Notes under the pieces: model-generated
Databases searched by the model: none
Seen by the model: only the letters and a program-made list of their open reading frames with translations
Told to the model about the DNA's origin: nothing
In this document: piece by piece, positions 3,349 to 62,754 of the stretch
How the letters are laid out: every line of letters starts with the position of its first letter
How positions within the stretch are numbered: position 1 is the first letter of the stretch
Program-made: the position numbers and the translations under genes
DNA from: Escherichia phage vB_EcoM-E33
DNA: 64,000 nt
Sequence record: OL780484.1
Reading direction: 5' to 3' (one strand)

Positions 3349-3585
3349 ATGGAAGCTTTAATCGTTAGTGCTGGTGTTTTAGGATTCGGTTCTCTGGTTA
3401 TTATGTTCATCGGTTACTTTTTACCATGGATTCTGGCTCTTCTGCGAGGCACTCGTAGTAATGTAGGAATTTTCTTCCTTAATCTCCTGTTAGGCTGGAC
3501 GATGATTGGTTGGGTAGTGGCTTTAATCTGGGCTATCGTCGCTGAACGTAAATCAAACGCACAAATCATTATTGTTAAACAATGA
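3349..3585 (+). CDS. imm: Immunity to superinfection membrane protein Imm
   Basis: 78-aa highly hydrophobic two-helix protein directly downstream of gene 43, as T4 imm. Confidence 0.8.
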   Translation: MEALIVSAGVLGFGSLVIMFIGYFLPWILALLRGTRSNVGIFFLNLLLGWTMIGWVVALIWAIVAERKSNAQIIIVKQ

Positions 3586-3726
3586 AAATAATTGTTTTAT
3601 TTCTTATAATGGCTGCCTTTACCGTTTATTGGGCAGTGGCAATTCCGCCAATGATTCCGACACTCATCATTGGATGGATTATTCTTATAGCACAAATTAA
3701 GTATAACTGTTTTAATTGAGGATATT

Positions 3727-11463: not shown

Positions 11464-11492
11464 GTTTACATCTCCTGTAGGCGTGATACTAT
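11464..11492 (+). promoter_or_regulatory. T4-type early promoter
   Basis: GTTTAC, 17 nt, TGaTACTAT, then CTATCAACT leader. Confidence 0.55.
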
Positions 11493-32033: not shown

Positions 32034-32510
32034 ATGAAGGTCAAGATTAAGGATACCGTATTGTATTCCTTAAGCCAAGACCCGTCCCAAGATAAGAAAG
32101 AAGTATTGACTCGGTGTGTCATTGCAACGTATGCCGAGTACATGGTTGCTGATTGGTTGAAAGGATATGTTAACAGTGGTCTGGAAGACCATGACGACCC
32201 TTATACCTATGCATGGGATGTTTTAGCTCATCCTATGTATTGTGGACTACGTGTAGAGGTCAAGACCCATCAGTCGGATTCTAAGTGGATTTCCTGCACT
32301 ACAGGATACTCCGGTGACTTCCCTTATGGAACAGGGATTAACCTGGGCCCGCTCTTGAATCATAAAGTTGCAGATTGTATAATTATATTCGACACTTCGG
32401 TAAATGAGGCAGGCGATGTCCTGTTCACTCCTAAGTTCTCTGGTGACAGAGAAGCCATCACAAAGCTAGTCCGTAAGAGCAATTACAACGGCTGGTATCT
32501 CGCCTTATAA
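32034..32510 (+). CDS. Hypothetical protein (158 aa; possibly denB-region gene)
   Basis: First ATG after upstream stop in frame of ORF-track 31929..32510; start uncertain. Confidence 0.4.
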   Translation: MKVKIKDTVLYSLSQDPSQDKKEVLTRCVIATYAEYMVADWLKGYVNSGLEDHDDPYTYAWDVLAHPMYCGLRVEVKTHQSDSKWISCTTGYSGDFPYGTGINLGPLLNHKVADCIIIFDTSVNEAGDVLFTPKFSGDREAITKLVRKSNYNGWYLAL

Positions 32511-32583
32511 ATTTTTTAAATAAGTGTTTACATACACCAAGGATGGTGTTACTATCTTCCTATCAACTTGAGAGGAAAACAAA

Positions 32584-32841
32584 ATGAAATTCTATTACGC
32601 CAAACATAAAATTACCCGTGAGTTTGTATCGTTTTCAACCTTTTCAGATGAAGAAGACTTTTGCATCACTGGTCTGGATTTATCTAAATATGAAACCGAC
32701 CAGCCTTATTTGACCACTCATGACGAGATTCAACGTTTGGTGAACGGTGAGCTAAATAATTCTTACTGCACTCAAATTTACCCTGCTTTGAAAAAAGCTA
32801 TCAATGCTAATCAGATTGAAATCATTGAGGTGGAATTGTGA
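32584..32841 (+). CDS. Hypothetical protein (85 aa), tandem paralog 1
   Basis: MKFYYAKHKIT… ; SD GAGAGGAAAA; early promoter. Confidence 0.5.
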   Translation: MKFYYAKHKITREFVSFSTFSDEEDFCITGLDLSKYETDQPYLTTHDEIQRLVNGELNNSYCTQIYPALKKAINANQIEIIEVEL

Positions 32842-33104
32842 ATATCAAATTATATTACGCTAAACACAAAGTTACGGGTACGGTTGTTGCCGCCATGTAT
32901 GACGCGTCAGGTGAAGGTGATGATGTTACTACAGAGTTATCTCTTTCTGATTGTAAATTTCTCCGTCCCTTAATCGCATCAAAGGAAGATTTAGAAAAGC
33001 TTATTGATGGAAAACTGGATAATGTTGACGGCATAGATATTCTTTATGACCTCCGCACGGCATTGTACAGGGGATTGATTGAGATAAAAGAGGTGGTGTT
33101 TTGA
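32838..33104 (+). CDS. Hypothetical protein (88 aa), tandem paralog 2
   Basis: MNIKLYYAKHKVT… shares N- and C-terminal blocks (…IEIIEVEL / …IEIKEVVF) with upstream gene. Confidence 0.5.
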   Translation: MNIKLYYAKHKVTGTVVAAMYDASGEGDDVTTELSLSDCKFLRPLIASKEDLEKLIDGKLDNVDGIDILYDLRTALYRGLIEIKEVVF

Positions 33105-33249
33105 GTAGCAAAACGTGGTGCCTTATTTGGATGGCCTGTATCCCAGTGATTTGCGTGTGTTTTAGTTTATTGTTGTGGAAATTGGCATAAATCAGTATAC
33201 ATCTCCATTAATCATGATATTATAGACCTATCAACTAATGGAGATGATT

Positions 33250-33360
33250 ATGAAAAACTTACTTAAAGCAATTTGGAACATGTTTGTGTTGTTAATGGTA
33301 TTGAGCATTTTCCCAATCGTTTTTATGATTGACCATGTACGTGTATTCTTTAACTTCTGA
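33250..33360 (+). CDS. Small hydrophobic peptide (36 aa)
   Basis: ATG after SD GGAGATGA; single TM-like segment; unverified. Confidence 0.3.
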   Translation: MKNLLKAIWNMFVLLMVLSIFPIVFMIDHVRVFFNF

Positions 33361-33370
33361 GGAAAATATT

Positions 33371-33583
33371 ATGAAACTTTTTAAAGATGTGGTAGTCGGC
33401 GAGAGCTTTGTATTGCATAATGGCCAACAACTGATTCGCATTTCTCCTTTGCAAGTTGGGACCGAATTACAACCTGTTAATGCTACAGACCTTTATGATT
33501 CAACTAAGCGTTTTTGTGTAGGCCCTAGTGTGCAATGCCTTACTGTTGATGAGTTGATGGCTATTTCTGTTGACGCTGAATAA
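33371..33583 (+). CDS. Hypothetical protein (70 aa)
   Basis: ATG 33371 after SD GAGGAAA. Confidence 0.45.
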   Translation: MKLFKDVVVGESFVLHNGQQLIRISPLQVGTELQPVNATDLYDSTKRFCVGPSVQCLTVDELMAISVDAE

Positions 33584-33593
33584 GGAAAATATT

Positions 33594-33938
33594 ATGTCTA
33601 AATTATTTTTTGGTAATCGCAACATTATGTTCTTTGAGCAACTCAGTCTTAAAGAGGCATTGAAGGCCTTCAATCAAGAACTGGTTACTGGGCTAGATTC
33701 AAAAACTATGGCAAGTGCGGATTTCGTTTTCGTTCAAGACCCGGATACAGGTTTTTATCGATTCATCAAATTCCGTATGAGCATGGACCCTGACTATCGT
33801 AGTGCTTACTACGTGAGTTATGAAAACGTTATCAAAGAATTACGTGATACCTATGGACGCGCTTTGAACCCACTGAACAAGGTTTATAATGCTTCTTTTT
33901 ATACGAGCGGATTTATTTTAGAACAGCTACAAAAATAG
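33594..33938 (+). CDS. Hypothetical protein (114 aa)
   Basis: ATG 33594 after SD AAGGAAA. Confidence 0.45.
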   Translation: MSKLFFGNRNIMFFEQLSLKEALKAFNQELVTGLDSKTMASADFVFVQDPDTGFYRFIKFRMSMDPDYRSAYYVSYENVIKELRDTYGRALNPLNKVYNASFYTSGFILEQLQK

Positions 33939-34015
33939 TTTACAACCTCGAGAATCATGTTATAATGGTTCTCGTTGACTGGATAACAAAACATTAATCT
34001 ACTGAGGAAATTGAT

Positions 34016-34465
34016 ATGAATACTTATATGACTCGCCGTAACGTTCTGTCTGCTGGTGCTACTACTGTTGCTTATGTTAAGAACGGTGAATACCAAAATG
34101 GCAAACCTTCTAAAGAAATCTCTGCTCAGCCAGGCTTCTACTTCTTTGTTAAAGGTGAAGCGGATTCTCGTGTCGTAGCTGCACGCTTTTATGTCGGTAA
34201 TCAACGTTCGGCTCAAGGTCTCGATGGTATCGTGGCTAACATTCGTAAGAAACGTTCTCAATCAGCCCGCACTATGGCAGTGAACGGTGTTGTGTATGAA
34301 GTTCTTTATGTACCAGCTTCTAAGATGAAACCTCTGACTACAGGTTTTGGTAAGGGTCAAATTGCAATGGCTTTCACTCGTAATCATAGTTCCGACCTCC
34401 AGACACTGGAAGAAATGAACCGTATGTTGGCTGATAACTTTAAATTCATCCTGCAGGCTTACTAA
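34016..34465 (+). CDS. Hypothetical protein (149 aa)
   Basis: Early-type promoter (GTTTAC…TGtTATAAT) and SD GAGGAAA. Confidence 0.5.
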
Positions 34466-34552
34466 TGAGTAATTTCCATAACGAGCATGTGATGCAGTTC
34501 TATCGTAACAATCTTAAAACTAAAGGCGTCTTCGGACGCTAATGAGGAAAAT

Positions 34553-34714
34553 ATGGTTATCCTAGTTTTTATTGAACTTATTATGGCTATAGTCTGTTCA
34601 GTTTGCTTCTTTTTAGGAGTGTGGGCCCCTGGTCCGATATTCTTAAGTTTTCTGCTTATTGGTTGGGTTCTTTCTACTTTTGTCGGTTTACTTAAGACGA
34701 TTAAAAATGATTAA
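34553..34714 (+). CDS. Small membrane protein (53 aa)
   Basis: ATG after SD GAGGAAAA; two hydrophobic segments. Confidence 0.4.
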   Translation: MVILVFIELIMAIVCSVCFFLGVWAPGPIFLSFLLIGWVLSTFVGLLKTIKND

Positions 34715-34847
34715 TAAAATCCTGGGCTACTCGTTAGCCCTTGCTGCTTTATTAGTAGCGCTGTATTACGGAGTAATGTTCGGACTTATCCAAGTTGTGC
34801 TTTTTATTTCCGATGTTATTATGGCTATTCATTCACTAGTATGGTAA
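34707..34847 (+). CDS. Small membrane protein (46 aa)
   Basis: ATG overlapping upstream stop; hydrophobic; ORF track 34659..34847. Confidence 0.35.
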   Translation: MINKILGYSLALAALLVALYYGVMFGLIQVVLFISDVIMAIHSLVW

Positions 34848-34851
34848 AATT

Positions 34852-36231
34852 ATGGCTGATGTAATTGATACCCTTTTTAAACAGGCTTTAGATGTTTACG
34901 ATGATTCTTTCACTCGTCGTGACTTAAAAAGTATTATCGACAACGAAGCATTGGCTTATGCAATGTATACTGTCGAAAACCGAGCCATTCCAAATATGAT
35001 TGATGGCTTTAAACCTGTACAACGTTTTGTAGTGGCTCGTTGTCTTGATATGGCTCGTGGTAATAAAGAAAAATTCCACAAACTGGCTTCTATCGCTGGT
35101 GGTGTAGCCGACCTCGGATATCACCACGGTGAAGGTTCTGCTCAGGAAGCAGGGGCTTTGATGGCTAACACATGGAACAACAACTATCCATTGTTAGACG
35201 GTCAAGGTAACTTCGGTTCTCGATTGGTTCAAAAGGCTGCAGCCTCTCGTTATATTTTTGCTCGTATCGGAAGTAACTTTGCAAAAGTTTATAAGGACAC
35301 AGAATATGCTCCGGTTCATGCGGATGTCGAACATAAGCCACCGGCTTTTTATCTGCCTATTATTCCTACTGTTCTTCTTAATGGCGTTTCCGGTATTGCA
35401 ACTGGTTATGCAACTAATATTCTTCCTCATAGTTTTGATTCTGTTAAGAAAGCTGTACTGCAAGTTCTTCAGGAAAAACGAGTAACCAAACCCAAAGTGG
35501 CTTATCCTGAATTCCGTGGTGAAGTTGTTGAGATTGAACCTGGTAGTTATGAGATTCGTGGAACGTATAAGTTCACATCTCGAACCCAAATGCATATCAC
35601 GGAAATCCCATACAAATACGACCGTGAAACATATGTGGCTAAGGTATTAGACCCTCTGGAAGACAAAGGGTATATCACATATGATGATGACTGTGACGAG
35701 AACGGTTTTGGCTTCAAGGTTAAGATTCGTAAAGAATACGAATTGCCTACTGATGAAAACAAGAAGCATGAAAAAATCATGAAGGACTTCGGGTTAATCG
35801 AACGTCGTTCACAAAACCTGACTGTCATTAATGAAAAAGGTAAACTTAAGGTTTACGAAGATGCAGTTGAACTGATTCGTGATTTCGTTGAGGTCCGTAA
35901 GACCTTTGTACAGAAACGTATTGATGGTAAAATCATCGAAACTGAAGAAGCTTTCAAACTGGCATTGGCTAAAGCCACATTTATCAAAGATGTTATTGAT
36001 GGTGTAGTGGTTATCCAAGGTAAGACCCGTAAGGTTTTAACCGAAGAATTGACCGGTAATAAAGTCTATGGCGAATATGCCGATAAACTAGTGGCCATGA
36101 ACATTTTCCATATCACTTCTGACGAAGCCAAGAAACTGGCCCTCGAAGCCAAGGCTAAGAAAGAAGAGCATCAATATTGGAAAACCACTGATGTTGTAAC
36201 TGAGTATGTTAAAGATTTGGAGGCTCTATGA
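34852..36231 (+). CDS. 52: DNA topoisomerase II medium subunit gp52 (GyrA-like)
   Basis: 459 aa; GFKPVQRFV and catalytic-Tyr region typical of type IIA topo A subunit. Confidence 0.9.
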   Translation: MADVIDTLFKQALDVYDDSFTRRDLKSIIDNEALAYAMYTVENRAIPNMIDGFKPVQRFVVARCLDMARGNKEKFHKLASIAGGVADLGYHHGEGSAQEAGALMANTWNNNYPLLDGQGNFGSRLVQKAAASRYIFARIGSNFAKVYKDTEYAPVHADVEHKPPAFYLPIIPTVLLNGVSGIATGYATNILPHSFDSVKKAVLQVLQEKRVTKPKVAYPEFRGEVVEIEPGSYEIRGTYKFTSRTQMHITEIPYKYDRETYVAKVLDPLEDKGYITYDDDCDENGFGFKVKIRKEYELPTDENKKHEKIMKDFGLIERRSQNLTVINEKGKLKVYEDAVELIRDFVEVRKTFVQKRIDGKIIETEEAFKLALAKATFIKDVIDGVVVIQGKTRKVLTEELTGNKVYGEYADKLVAMNIFHITSDEAKKLALEAKAKKEEHQYWKTTDVVTEYVKDLEAL

Positions 36232-36332
36232 GCCTTGGAGTCGAGTTCTTGTTACTCTGTATCTTTGCTGTTATCCTAGGCCTGGCGACAGGCTTAGCTA
36301 TAGGTTTAATAGCAGCCCACTTTAAAAAGTAA
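36228..36332 (+). CDS. Small hydrophobic peptide (34 aa)
   Basis: ATG overlapping gp52 stop; unverified. Confidence 0.25.
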   Translation: MSLGVEFLLLCIFAVILGLATGLAIGLIAAHFKK

Positions 36333-36356
36333 GGAACCTTCGGGTTCCTTTTTTGG
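36331..36356 (+). terminator. Rho-independent terminator (aaggaacc-UUCG-ggttcctt + T tract)
   Basis: Same hairpin sequence as at 16321; TTTTTTGGGTTT tail. Confidence 0.7.
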
Positions 36357-36373
36357 GTTTAGTGCAAAAAAGT

Positions 36374-36402
36374 GTTTACATCTGCTTTAAACATGATACT
36401 AT
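36374..36402 (+). promoter_or_regulatory. T4-type early promoter (motA)
   Basis: GTTTAC, 17 nt, TGaTACTAT, CTATCAAAT leader. Confidence 0.55.
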
Positions 36403-36440
36403 AGACCTATCAAATAAATGAACTGAAACGGAGATACAAA

Positions 36441-37073
36441 ATGTCTAAAATTACTTATATCATCAAAGCTTCTGAAGACGTCCTGAATGAAAAAACTGCT
36501 TCGATCTTAGTACATATCATCAAGCATAACTTCATCACTTCAGGCGAAGTCCGTGAAGCCCTGAGTGAGCATTTTAGTGCTGCGGTAGTTAACTCTAACA
36601 TCGGTGTATTGATTAAGAAAGGATTCATCGAAAAATCTGGTGACGGTTTAGTGGCTACAGGTGAAGCAATGGACCTAGTTCAAAAAGCCGCCGACCTGTT
36701 CGCTTCTGAAAATGCTCCAGAGATGTTGGAAAAACGTAAAACACGTAGCTCACGTGGTGTTACTCCTGAAATGGTAACCATGGCCGATGAAGTTAAAGCT
36801 TTATTAGAAGATCGTATCGAGATTCGTGAAATTGCTGAAAACCGTAGCAACCTTGAAGTTCGATTCGCCAAACGTACCAATGGTATTCGTCAAATTGAAG
36901 TCCGTCGTGACGGAATGATGCGTATCTTCGGTTATAATATGACTGATAAAGAAAAACAAGTGTTTACTTCCTTGAATCTTGATGTTAAGATTAAGACTGG
37001 TGGTAAGAATACTTATATCGACTTCCAAAATGTATCATCTGAAGTTATCAAAACCGTAACCAACGCAATTTAA
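36441..37073 (+). CDS. motA: Middle-transcription activator MotA
   Basis: 210 aa; MSKITYIIKASEDVLNEKTASIL… close to T4 MotA as recalled. Confidence 0.92.
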   Translation: MSKITYIIKASEDVLNEKTASILVHIIKHNFITSGEVREALSEHFSAAVVNSNIGVLIKKGFIEKSGDGLVATGEAMDLVQKAADLFASENAPEMLEKRKTRSSRGVTPEMVTMADEVKALLEDRIEIREIAENRSNLEVRFAKRTNGIRQIEVRRDGMMRIFGYNMTDKEKQVFTSLNLDVKIKTGGKNTYIDFQNVSSEVIKTVTNAI

Positions 37074-37091
37074 CTGACTGAGGAAATTATT

Positions 37092-37421
37092 ATGAACAAG
37101 CTTAATATTGTTAATGAACTTCGTCGTTGTGCAGAACCTACTCAAGAAGGTTGGGACATTTGGTACCACGGTGCTTATCTCGGCACTATTGTTAAGATTA
37201 AAGCAGGTAAATACTTAATCATCCGTGGTGGTTCTGAAGCTTCTATGGGAATTCGCAAAAACTTTATGGCAGCAATCAGCACCTTTGTTCCGGCGGCCTA
37301 CGAAGTTTATAAAGCGGACTACAAAGAATACCAGGAATCACAGCCGGTTATTCGTTCAATTGGTGTTAATAAAGCTCAACAGAAAACTTTATGGCAACGT
37401 GTTAAAGGATGGTTCAAATGA
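37092..37421 (+). CDS. Hypothetical protein (109 aa)
   Basis: SD GAGGAAA. Confidence 0.45.
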   Translation: MNKLNIVNELRRCAEPTQEGWDIWYHGAYLGTIVKIKAGKYLIIRGGSEASMGIRKNFMAAISTFVPAAYEVYKADYKEYQESQPVIRSIGVNKAQQKTLWQRVKGWFK

Positions 37422-37756
37422 TTCCGATGGAACTTGACTGGGACGGCGAAGGCCATTCCCTTAAATTAATCGAAGAGCAGCGTAATGATTGGGACGAGCG
37501 TGTAGCTCTGGTAAACGGTATTAAGAAAATTTATCAACTCAATCTCCAGATTGATAACGTTCATCTTGAATTTGGTATGCAGTTATTACGATTTCTTGAG
37601 ATTATTTTTATTGAAAAGGTAAATATAACTTCGTATGGCGAGGGCCAAACAGTTGATATTAAATTATCATCCTATTATAAAGGTGATTTAATTGAAACTG
37701 CCACCAAAATTCAAGAATTTGCTAAAGATAATGGCCATAAGGTGATTTTCAAATGA
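37418..37756 (+). CDS. Hypothetical protein (112 aa)
   Basis: ATG 37418 overlapping upstream stop. Confidence 0.45.
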
Positions 37757-61959: not shown

Positions 61960-62300
61960 GTATTTACCTTTTAGCTGGAGCCATTGCAGTAGGTGCTTAC
62001 GGTTTTATTTCGTATCAATCAAGTCGTATTGATACCCTTACTGAAGAACTGAAAACTACCCAGCAAACGGCCAAACAGAATGCCGAAGCCGTAGAGGACC
62101 TACGTGGCCAATACTCGGATATTGAATTCCGTACTACTGAAATGAATGCCCGAATGGATAAAATTAAGGTAGAAAATGAAAAGCTCCGTAAAGATTCGAA
62201 GAAGGCGCACGTGGTGGCAAGTAAGCCAGGATTGGTCGAAAAACAAATCAACAAGTCCTTCGATTCCTTTACAGAAGACTTCAGGAGCATTACAGAATGA
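61947..62300 (+). CDS. i-spanin (Rz-like; T4 PseT.3 equivalent)
   Basis: N-terminal TM segment (IYLLAGAIAVGAYGFISY) followed by coiled-coil periplasmic domain. Confidence 0.7.
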   Translation: MSKLSIYLLAGAIAVGAYGFISYQSSRIDTLTEELKTTQQTAKQNAEAVEDLRGQYSDIEFRTTEMNARMDKIKVENEKLRKDSKKAHVVASKPGLVEKQINKSFDSFTEDFRSITE

Positions 62301-62587
62301 TTAAATTATCTGTGGTAGTATTATCTATTGGCTTGTTAGTTGGATGTGCCCAGGACATCCCTGTAGTGCCTAAGCAACAACTACATCCTTCATGGCCACA
62401 ACCTATTGCCAAACATAATGTTAAATGGCAGGTTAAGGTAATCGATGGTAAAGCTTGGGTTGGAATGCCATTTGAAGATTCCCAAGAACATCGTATTTGG
62501 TTGAATGACGTAAAAAGATATGTACAAGACCAGAAATCTATGTTATGTTATTATCGTTCTGGACTAAAAGAGGGGAAGTGCAAATGA
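62297..62587 (+). CDS. o-spanin lipoprotein (Rz1-like; T4 PseT.2 equivalent)
   Basis: Lipobox LLVGC, Pro-rich mature region, C-terminal Cys; start overlaps i-spanin stop. Confidence 0.7.
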   Translation: MIKLSVVVLSIGLLVGCAQDIPVVPKQQLHPSWPQPIAKHNVKWQVKVIDGKAWVGMPFEDSQEHRIWLNDVKRYVQDQKSMLCYYRSGLKEGKCK

Positions 62588-62754
62588 TTGAGACATGCGT
62601 TTGCGGTTGGGATGCCGTTAGATTTGGCGCTGCATTCTTTTGTTTTGGGATTGTGTTCAGCATGTGTATGCATGGTCTTTTCGGAAAGTAGTTTACAAAC
62701 TCTTGGGAGCAGAGTATAATGCTCCTACGGATTATAAAAATTGAGGAAATTATT

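Follow-up and report, generated by a model that had tools for sequence, protein, structure and literature searches.

Very small membrane-peptide genes around gene 52 of Escherichia phage vB_EcoM-E33: probable identities and candidate roles

In the 64,000-nucleotide stretch of Escherichia phage vB_EcoM-E33 that we analysed (sequence record OL780484.1; hereafter, the window), gene 52, which encodes the medium subunit of topoisomerase II, is surrounded by open reading frames (ORFs) so short and so hydrophobic that it is reasonable to ask whether they are genes at all and, if they are, what their products do. A preliminary description of the window had drawn attention to five such ORFs, and each is found where it was listed: ORF1 at 33250..33360 (MKNLLKAIWNMFVLLMVLSIFPIVFMIDHVRVFFNF), ORF2 at 34553..34714 (MVILVFIELIMAIVCSVCFFLGVWAPGPIFLSFLLIGWVLSTFVGLLKTIKND), ORF3 at 34707..34847 (MINKILGYSLALAALLVALYYGVMFGLIQVVLFISDVIMAIHSLVW), ORF4 at 36228..36332 (MSLGVEFLLLCIFAVILGLATGLAIGLIAAHFKK) and, after the o-spanin gene, ORF5 at 62584..62691 (MIETCVCGWDAVRFGAAFFCFGIVFSMCMHGLFGK), all on the + strand. 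We conclude that these ORFs are very probably genuine genes for very small inner-membrane peptides of the T4-like accessory early region around gene 52. We infer that, most likely, they are produced early in infection, reside in the inner membrane and modulate the envelope of the host.

The window comes from a JS98/JS10-like Dhakavirus, i.e., a T4-like phage. A megablast search with positions 32500-37500 matched 766 phage records, and the top matches (Dhakavirus LHE83, vB_EcoM_FB, IME08 and JS10) are 93-96% identical over the entire query; a comparison of annotations gives the same gene order in Dhakavirus genomes of 95-96% nucleotide identity. Using the Dhakavirus annotation and the T4 reference map, we identified the interval from 31 to 37.5 kb of the window as the T4 block rIIB-denB-ndd.x-ndd-stp-ac-52.1-52-motA.1-motA-arn, which lies on the + strand of the window and therefore in the orientation opposite to that of the T4 map. 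The part from denB to motA occupies 33.1-36.4 kb. T-even phages carry small membrane-protein genes of this sort between rIIB/denB and motA. An Rfam scan of the whole window gave zero matches, so no RNA element accounts for the region.

It might seem that frames as short as these arose by chance in intergenic DNA rich in A+T and have no functional product. T-rich codons yield hydrophobic residues by chance, and some of the ORFs are unannotated in several related records. However, the substitutions are biased toward synonymous changes in the frames of the ORFs. Using loci from IMG/VR, 48 around gene 52 and 19 around pseT, we counted substitutions relative to the window sequence by the method of Nei and Gojobori (NG86), and expressed them as the ratio of nonsynonymous to synonymous substitution rates (dN/dS). 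This ratio is 0.14 for ORF1, 0.12 for ORF3, 0.045 for ORF4 (20 synonymous versus 3 nonsynonymous changes, with 4/0/11 variable sites at the three codon positions) and 0.17 for ORF5, compared to 0.14, 0.135 and 0.13 for the reference genes gp52, ndd and motA. Purifying selection on these four of the five ORFs is as strong as on neighbouring genes. Moreover, the ORFs are intact in every distinct relative sampled, they are conserved to T4 or across genera, and each of the five matches an existing PHROG family with an E-value between 1e-15 and 1e-26. The conservation in related phages that the preliminary description had proposed as a check is borne out for all five.

The start signals point in the same direction. 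Shine-Dalgarno (SD)-like sequences, which had been reported for all of the ORFs, stand upstream of four of them: GGAG 6 nucleotides (nt) before the ATG of ORF1 at 33250, GAGGA about 5 nt before the start of ORF2, GGAGG before ORF4 and a GAGGGG-rich stretch before ORF5. ORF3 lacks a strong SD sequence and has a start that overlaps the preceding gene instead. Starts overlap stops elsewhere in the set too, as described below. Hydrophobic ORFs of this kind are also scarce: considering ATG-start ORFs of 22-80 residues with a grand average of hydropathy (GRAVY) of at least 1.2 that lie largely outside long ORFs, we found only 8 in the 64 kb, and 4 of these 8 belong to the set of five. Given the substitution pattern and the conservation, we reject the idea of chance frames, which is extremely improbable. 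The description of the products as having transmembrane-like segments also holds, since the GRAVY of the five peptides ranges from 1.15 to 1.80, a scan with a 15-residue window gives a single long hydrophobic stretch in each, and AlphaFold2 predicts two helices in the 53-residue product of ORF2.

Some points nonetheless weigh against the conclusion that all five are genes for membrane peptides with a modulating role. The dN/dS values, from 0.045 to 0.60, come from counts that pool non-independent comparisons and few sites, although their direction is still clear. The highest of them, 0.60, is that of ORF2, which is weakly constrained within the genus, with variable sites distributed 8/5/5 over the codon positions; the changes are few and all are conservative hydrophobic swaps, and the ORF is intact in 8 of 8 distinct sequences. 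AlphaFold2 models the product of ORF3 as one continuous helix (predicted local distance difference test, pLDDT, 96) whose membrane topology is ambiguous. A literature search for ribosome profiling of T4 small proteins returned nothing relevant, nor did proteomic data on these peptides come up, and translation and membrane insertion are predictions. Finally, the modulator mechanism is drawn by analogy from a single protein, Ac of T4.

Two of the five ORFs are homologs of long-annotated T4 genes. ORF1 encodes 36 residues with a single hydrophobic span and matches phrog_3098 (E 5.2e-21), the family that T4 Ndd.4 also matches (NP_049884, 42 residues, annotated as "hypothetical predicted inner membrane"); in a tblastn search, it is 59% identical to T4 Ndd.4 (E 3.7e-13). 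In position, too, it agrees with the Ndd.4 family, with denB on one side, ndd.1/ndd on the other and no change of strand: the order in the window is a denB-like gene, an Ndd.6-like ORF, ORF1, an Ndd.1 homolog (33371..33583) and ndd. ORF1 and T4 Ndd.4 differ in that ORF1 is slightly shorter, with the third ATG, at 33250, as its likely start. An alternative ATG at 33238 would yield 40 residues, but the PHROG profile and the SD sequence favour the start at 33250. The Ndd.6-like ORF (33101..33190, + strand) was absent from the preliminary description. It encodes a hydrophobic peptide of 29 residues from a TTG start, matches phrog_8851 (E 2.6e-16) and T4 Ndd.6 (tblastn, E 4.7e-7), is annotated in JS10 and has a dN/dS of 0.14.

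The second homolog is ORF3, whose product of 46 residues matches the Pfam family DUF7396 (PF24129) over its full length (1-46 of 46) with 78 bits against a cut-off of 27. It is identical to T4 gp52.1 (NP_049876, 46 residues, PF24129, phrog_3595) at 44 of 46 residues (95.7%), and the two agree in length, in position and in the overlap with the preceding gene, with no notable difference between them. The ATG of ORF3, at 34707, lies within the last codons of ORF2, giving an 8-nt overlap, and its stop codon is 4 nt before the ATG of gene 52; 52.1 is likewise directly upstream of gene 52 in T4 and in most related loci. A natural variant without an intact 52.1 was observed in a locus of the vB_EcoM_005 type (L033), where the ORF homologous to ORF2 is fused or extended to 70 residues, 52.1 is mostly deleted and the match to gp52 is truncated.

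The preliminary description had compared the ORFs to Ac and Stp of T-even phages. It was right about the kind of gene expected here, given the homologs of ndd.4 and 52.1, but neither comparator fits. A true homolog of Stp is present, as a separate ORF that was missing from the earlier list (34465..34542, + strand): it scores 72 bits against PF08133 (cut-off 25), which Pfam names as an anticodon nuclease activator family, all 25 of its 25 residues are identical to T4 Stp (26 residues, PF08133), and its dN/dS is 0.08. Like the T4 protein, it is a very small early peptide of the same gene cluster. Stp is not a membrane protein, however; its GRAVY of -0.94 marks it as hydrophilic, and the five ORFs neither match PF08133 nor resemble Stp. 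In the Pfam scan of the peptides, only DUF7396 and the Stp family were matched, and an NCBIfam scan gave zero matches.

The case for Ac concerns ORF2, which occupies the position of T4 ac: it follows stp, which ends at 34542, and overlaps 52.1 by 8 nt (ATGATTAA, with the 52.1 ATG inside the last codons of ORF2), as T4 ac does. T4 Ac (NP_049877, acridine sensitivity, phrog_2501) has 51 residues, close to the 53 of ORF2, and the two also share the C-terminal residues ND and a predicted two-helix form. For ORF2, AlphaFold2 predicts a two-helix membrane hairpin, with helices at residues 2-24 and 28-52 and a break at A25-P26-G27 (pLDDT 76, i.e., moderate confidence). Yet homology between them is undetectable. 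BLASTP finds no alignment of ORF2 with Ac at E <= 100; T4 Ac and its relatives in phages of the RB69, JS98, EcS1 and other types match phrog_2501, whereas ORF2 and its relatives match phrog_9347; and hhalign, given alignments of 14 sequences from the ORF2 family and 13 from the Ac family, returns a probability of 1.1%. We therefore rejected ORF2 as a homolog of Ac. Nor is an Ac-family gene present elsewhere: a tblastn search of the window for Ac, MotA.1, Ndd.2, Ndd.2a, Ndd.3, Ndd.5 and the peptide family C described below gave no significant match.

The distribution of ORF2 relatives leads to the same conclusion. Across the loci, there are up to four families of hydrophobic peptides of 43-61 residues between ndd/stp and gene 52, which we designate A (Ac), B (ORF2 and its relatives, whose turn motif G-[VA]-W-x-P has an invariant G and P), C (57-61 residues, ending in ..FER..CGV[YI]K) and D (gp52.1). 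The members of all four families presumably adopt a hairpin form, although the AlphaFold2 models have two helices for ORF2 and one for 52.1. If family B were simply a diverged version of Ac, the two would be expected to be mutually exclusive, but both are present in seven loci: those of the Enterobacter/Edwardsiella type (L007-L009 and L048), with the order C-B-A-52.1, that of the EcS1 type (L014), with the order C-A-B-52.1, and those of the JS98 type (L006 and L017). Because A and B co-occur, B is a distinct family rather than a diverged Ac ortholog. Full-length homologs of ORF2 were found by tblastn in 89 phage records, extending down to 31-55% identity in T4-like phages of Enterobacter, Edwardsiella, Kosakonia and Serratia; a search of a large protein database with ORF2 gave 4 clusters only, all of them Dhakavirus entries named "putative membrane protein". 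Family C, which is not in the window, was observed between ndd and gene 52, upstream of stp/ac, in many T4-like phages, some Dhakaviruses among them (loci L034, L004, L007-L009, L018, L026-L032 and L045-L046).

ORF4 presents a similar situation on the other side of gene 52. Its product of 34 residues has a single span and ends in KK, and its ATG overlaps the stop codon of gene 52 (ATGA, 36228-36231). In T4, motA.1 overlaps gene 52 by 4 nt, and ORF4 has the same place, starting on the gene 52 stop and lying upstream of motA. ORF4 resembles T4 MotA.1 (NP_049874, 49 residues, phrog_3487) in this slot, in the ATGA overlap, in strong hydrophobicity and in the terminator and motA promoter that follow, but the sequences are unrelated. 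The best BLASTP alignment has an E-value of 0.18 over 18 residues, ORF4 belongs to phrog_16377, and the two fall into separate clusters in an all-against-all BLASTP comparison. We therefore rejected ORF4 as a homolog of MotA.1 and regard it as a positional equivalent only. ORF4 is present in 54 records, all at least 94% identical, and a related N-terminus occurs in Gaprivervirus-type loci; members of the family are restricted to these and to Dhakavirus.

What might these peptides do? They would be made within minutes of infection and would insert into the host's cytoplasmic membrane. By the positive-inside rule, ORF2 would have both termini in the cytoplasm and its GVWxPGP turn in the periplasm, and the C-terminal KK of ORF4 would be cytoplasmic. 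Within the membrane, the peptides might bind larger components of host or phage. These could be transporters or efflux pumps, in line with the proposal made for T4 Ac, or else the machinery of lipid synthesis or targets related to exclusion or defence. They would represent dispensable, host-dependent accessory functions, as the corresponding T4 interval can be deleted. The T4 deletion saΔ9 removes 52.1, ac, stp, ndd, ndd.1-6 and denB, leaves a phage yield of 50% of wild type and abolishes the stimulation of phospholipid synthesis that the phage normally induces (PMC6071114). Because this stimulation is lost in saΔ9, the peptides are candidates for causing it.

Of the relatives in kind, T4 Ac alone has been studied by experiment. 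Expression of Ac by itself makes E. coli sensitive to acriflavine, and the protein has been proposed to block AcrAB-TolC (bioRxiv 10.1101/2025.06.30.662393), a proposal echoed in a further paper (PMC13250531). As an analogy only, bacterial small membrane-protein regulators such as AcrZ, a protein of 49 residues that binds AcrB, illustrate how a single-span or hairpin peptide of fewer than 60 residues can act on a larger membrane protein; binding of this sort is the model that we adopt for Ac and extend to the peptides of the window. We also considered a direct similarity of ORF4 or the other peptides to E. coli AcrZ, and rejected it, as the best E-values were 0.25-1.3 and there was no match to the Pfam AcrZ family.

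Several other explanations would assign the peptides, or some of them, a more specific function. ORF2 might be a functional equivalent of T4 Ac that blocks AcrAB-TolC efflux or otherwise raises acridine accumulation, despite its different sequence. The shared slot between stp and 52.1, the similar size and the 8-nt overlap would fit with this, as would a two-helix architecture like that of the ESMfold model reported for Ac (bioRxiv 10.1101/2025.06.30.662393), and the window has no Ac-family gene to supply the function. However, the failure of BLASTP, PHROG and hhalign to connect the two proteins speaks against it; the presence of A and B side by side in the Enterobacter/Edwardsiella-type and EcS1-type loci and in JS98 argues for non-redundant roles; and the common ND end is imposed on ORF2 because its last codons contain the conserved start of 52.1. 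We therefore consider this equivalence doubtful. A broader idea gives the peptides a part in counter-defence or exclusion or, as with Stp, in triggering host defence; they would occupy variable slots because hosts differ. Cassette-like replacement, which this would explain, fits with the sequences: the slot contents are swapped between conserved flanks (stp and 52.1, with 97% and 88% nucleotide identity to T4), and JS98 carries an inserted stp'-ac'-52.1' cassette. The peptide genes also adjoin stp, in an accessory region that can be deleted, and the window encodes a further small membrane protein, Imm, which is known to act in exclusion. On the other hand, none of the peptides is similar to characterised anti-defence or exclusion proteins, and ORF4 and 52.1 are near-invariant within the genus, unlike typical arms-race genes. 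Counter-defence is accordingly unlikely in our estimate, if worth keeping in mind.

The tight packing around gene 52 suggests another possibility, namely that gp52.1 and ORF4 are partners of the topoisomerase, i.e., membrane anchors, translated together with gp52, that would hold this subunit and hence the phage topoisomerase and replication complex at the inner membrane. The products of T4 genes 39 and 52 were reportedly recovered in membrane fractions in fractionation studies of the 1970s. Coupling occurs on both sides of gene 52, and 52.1 is far more conserved than its neighbours, with a dN relative to T4 of 0.03 compared to 0.14 for gp52. Across several genera, most loci whose gp52 is at least 65% identical have a hydrophobic ORF coupled to the stop of gene 52, and within the window gene 52 is the only one of 60 long + strand ORFs with a stop-coupled ORF of GRAVY >= 1.2. 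Nevertheless, T4 without 52.1 (saΔ9) still reaches half of the wild-type yield, and about 8-9 unrelated groups can be distinguished among the peptides downstream, which is hard to square with a specific interface on the conserved gp52. EcS1-type loci and several loci at 61-68% identity lack a downstream hydrophobic ORF, and a literature search on membrane association of the T4 topoisomerase gave nothing relevant. Tethering of this kind is, in our view, rather improbable. A role in lysis has been considered for ORF5 alone: as a small membrane peptide made together with the spanins, it could tune the action of spanin or holin. Its ATG lies on the o-spanin stop, it is conserved (dN/dS 0.17), and a different hydrophobic peptide of 32 residues occupies the same place in more distant phages. 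But T4-type phages that have the hydrophilic PseT.1 coupled there lyse normally, and searches of PHROG, Pfam and NCBIfam found no similarity to known lysis proteins, so that a lysis accessory is very unlikely.

We return to our preferred interpretation, that the ORFs encode accessory inner-membrane peptides, and to the way in which they are arranged. From ORF2 to ORF4, the genes are packed as expected for translational coupling: ORF2 and 52.1 overlap by 8 nt, a gap of 4 nt separates 52.1 from gene 52 (34852..36231, + strand; 81% identity to T4 gp52), and gene 52 and ORF4 overlap at ATGA. In the slot downstream of gene 52, an ORF that starts 3 or 9 nt before the end of gene 52 and is very hydrophobic is present in most loci with gp52 at least 65% identical, and the 8-9 unrelated groups into which these peptides are divided by all-against-all BLASTP range from 23 to 77 residues. 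The upstream slot may consist of a near-invariant gp52.1 with up to three further families (Ac, B and C) ahead of it, in an array that varies. One could imagine that gene 52 has two conserved slots for coupled hydrophobic micro-proteins. If so, selection would act on the presence of some membrane peptide made together with the topoisomerase subunit, e.g., in the tethering of a replication or topoisomerase complex to the membrane, or else the position at the stop codon would be a favoured landing site for membrane effectors that suit particular hosts. We offer this two-slot idea as a quite speculative one.

The divergence of the block from T4 (locus L003) is uneven. Nucleotide identity is 97% for stp (dS 0.17) and 88% for 52.1 (dS 0.56, dN 0.03), whereas the flanks are far more diverged (dS of 1.3 for ndd and about 2.1 for gene 52), and the gene between stp and 52.1 is unrelated. 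The closeness of stp and 52.1 to T4 around an unrelated gene suggests either cassette exchange between conserved flanks or an unusually strong constraint. JS98 (L006, 3147..3609) provides an example of a cassette replacement event. It has an insertion of 463 bp exactly at the ndd/stp junction, equivalent to the junction 34466/34467 of the window. Within this insertion are a copy of stp that has diverged but is intact, a gene of the Ac family and, from 52.1, a 5' fragment of 75 nt; at the microhomology GAGTAAT, the fragment runs into a second copy of stp, which lacks a start and is frameshifted.

Gene 52 itself is variable at its 5' end. The N-terminus of gp52 is dimorphic in Dhakavirus: a long form, MADVIDTLFKQALDVYDD..RRDLKSIID, is encoded by the window (34852..34940), JS10 and VR5-type phages, and a short form, MELTSRGLKSIID, by JS98, QL01 and IME341-type phages (loci L005, L006 and L034 were examined). 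This dimorphism implies that a recombination joint lies at that end of the gene.

The small genes appear to be distributed over more than one transcription unit. A T4-type early-promoter-like site on the + strand at 33196..33223 (TATACA-16-TATTAT with TG) opens the unit led by the Ndd.4 homolog. It is one of five + strand occurrences in the window, at 11481, 33212, 36391, 53185 and 53896, of an extended early-promoter motif, TGATAYTATAGACCTATCAA, for which 0 occurrences were expected. A strong promoter-like site upstream of ndd (33939..33966, + strand; TTTACA-16-TATAAT, 11 of 12 positions) is the probable start of a unit of ndd, stp, ORF2, 52.1, gene 52 and ORF4, which are consecutive, with gaps of at most about 10 nt. 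This series ends in an intrinsic-terminator-like hairpin (36331..36350, + strand) with a stem of 8 bp and a T run, which starts on the ORF4 stop codon. The hairpin is followed by an early-promoter-like site for motA (36375..36402, + strand), another member of the TGATAYTATAGACCTATCAA set. The combination of hairpin and promoter at 36331-36402 resembles PeSL, a promoter/stem-loop cassette of the type to which the shuffling of modules in T4-type phages has been attributed (PMC2839356). In the interval that corresponds to 36333..36440, related Dhakaviruses (L001, which is JS10, L034, L004 and L006) were observed to have an extra ORF of 71-79 residues, with at least 3 different sequences, between the terminator and promoter that follow ORF4 and motA; the window lacks this ORF, and motA comes next.

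ORF5 lies in a different setting. The o-spanin lipoprotein gene, a PseT.2 homolog (62297..62587, + strand), has its stop codon overlapped by the ATG of ORF5 (ATGA). The ORF5 product has 35 residues, is cysteine-rich with a single span, belongs to phrog_23289 and is found in 86 phage records at 57-100% identity. A promoter-like site (62692..62720, + strand; TTTACA-17-TATAAT, 11 of 12 positions) comes directly after it. T4 has no counterpart of ORF5: there, the o-spanin stop is overlapped by pseT.1, of 75 residues, whose product is hydrophilic in T4-type loci. In five more distant T4-like loci (L063 and L065-L068), the position after the o-spanin gene is taken by the 32-residue hydrophobic peptide mentioned above, MRKMTLGAKLFCIGLFVAGVACAVSLGIVITM, which may be distantly related to ORF5, judging from a common FC[FI]G[IL] core.

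A second pair of small membrane-protein genes was observed far from gene 52. The Imm superinfection-immunity homolog (3349..3585, + strand) has 78 residues and matches PF14373 with 65 bits. The ORF after it (3582..3719, + strand) starts on the Imm stop and encodes 45 very hydrophobic residues (GRAVY 1.64).

It is important to emphasize that, as sequences and in kind, these genes are already known. The ORFs are identical or nearly identical to deposited entries named "putative membrane protein" or "hypothetical protein", they belong to existing PHROG families, and two of them are homologs of long-annotated T4 genes. What is added here is the exact identity of each of the five ORFs, the missed Stp and Ndd.6-like genes, the pattern of slots around gene 52, and the demonstration that the occupants of the ac slot and the motA.1 slot are non-homologous replacements. 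There is also a practical value for annotation, as several public Dhakavirus records omit the ORF of 34, 35 or 53 residues, which should be annotated. Gene 52 is flagged as a gene flanked by coupled membrane micro-proteins. Finally, whether a phage has the Ac family or a second hairpin family in the ac slot bears on acriflavine sensitivity and efflux inhibition as a trait of therapeutic T4-like phages. Dhakaviruses without Ac, such as the phage of the window, would be predicted to have a natural resistance to acridine, unless family B takes the place of Ac.

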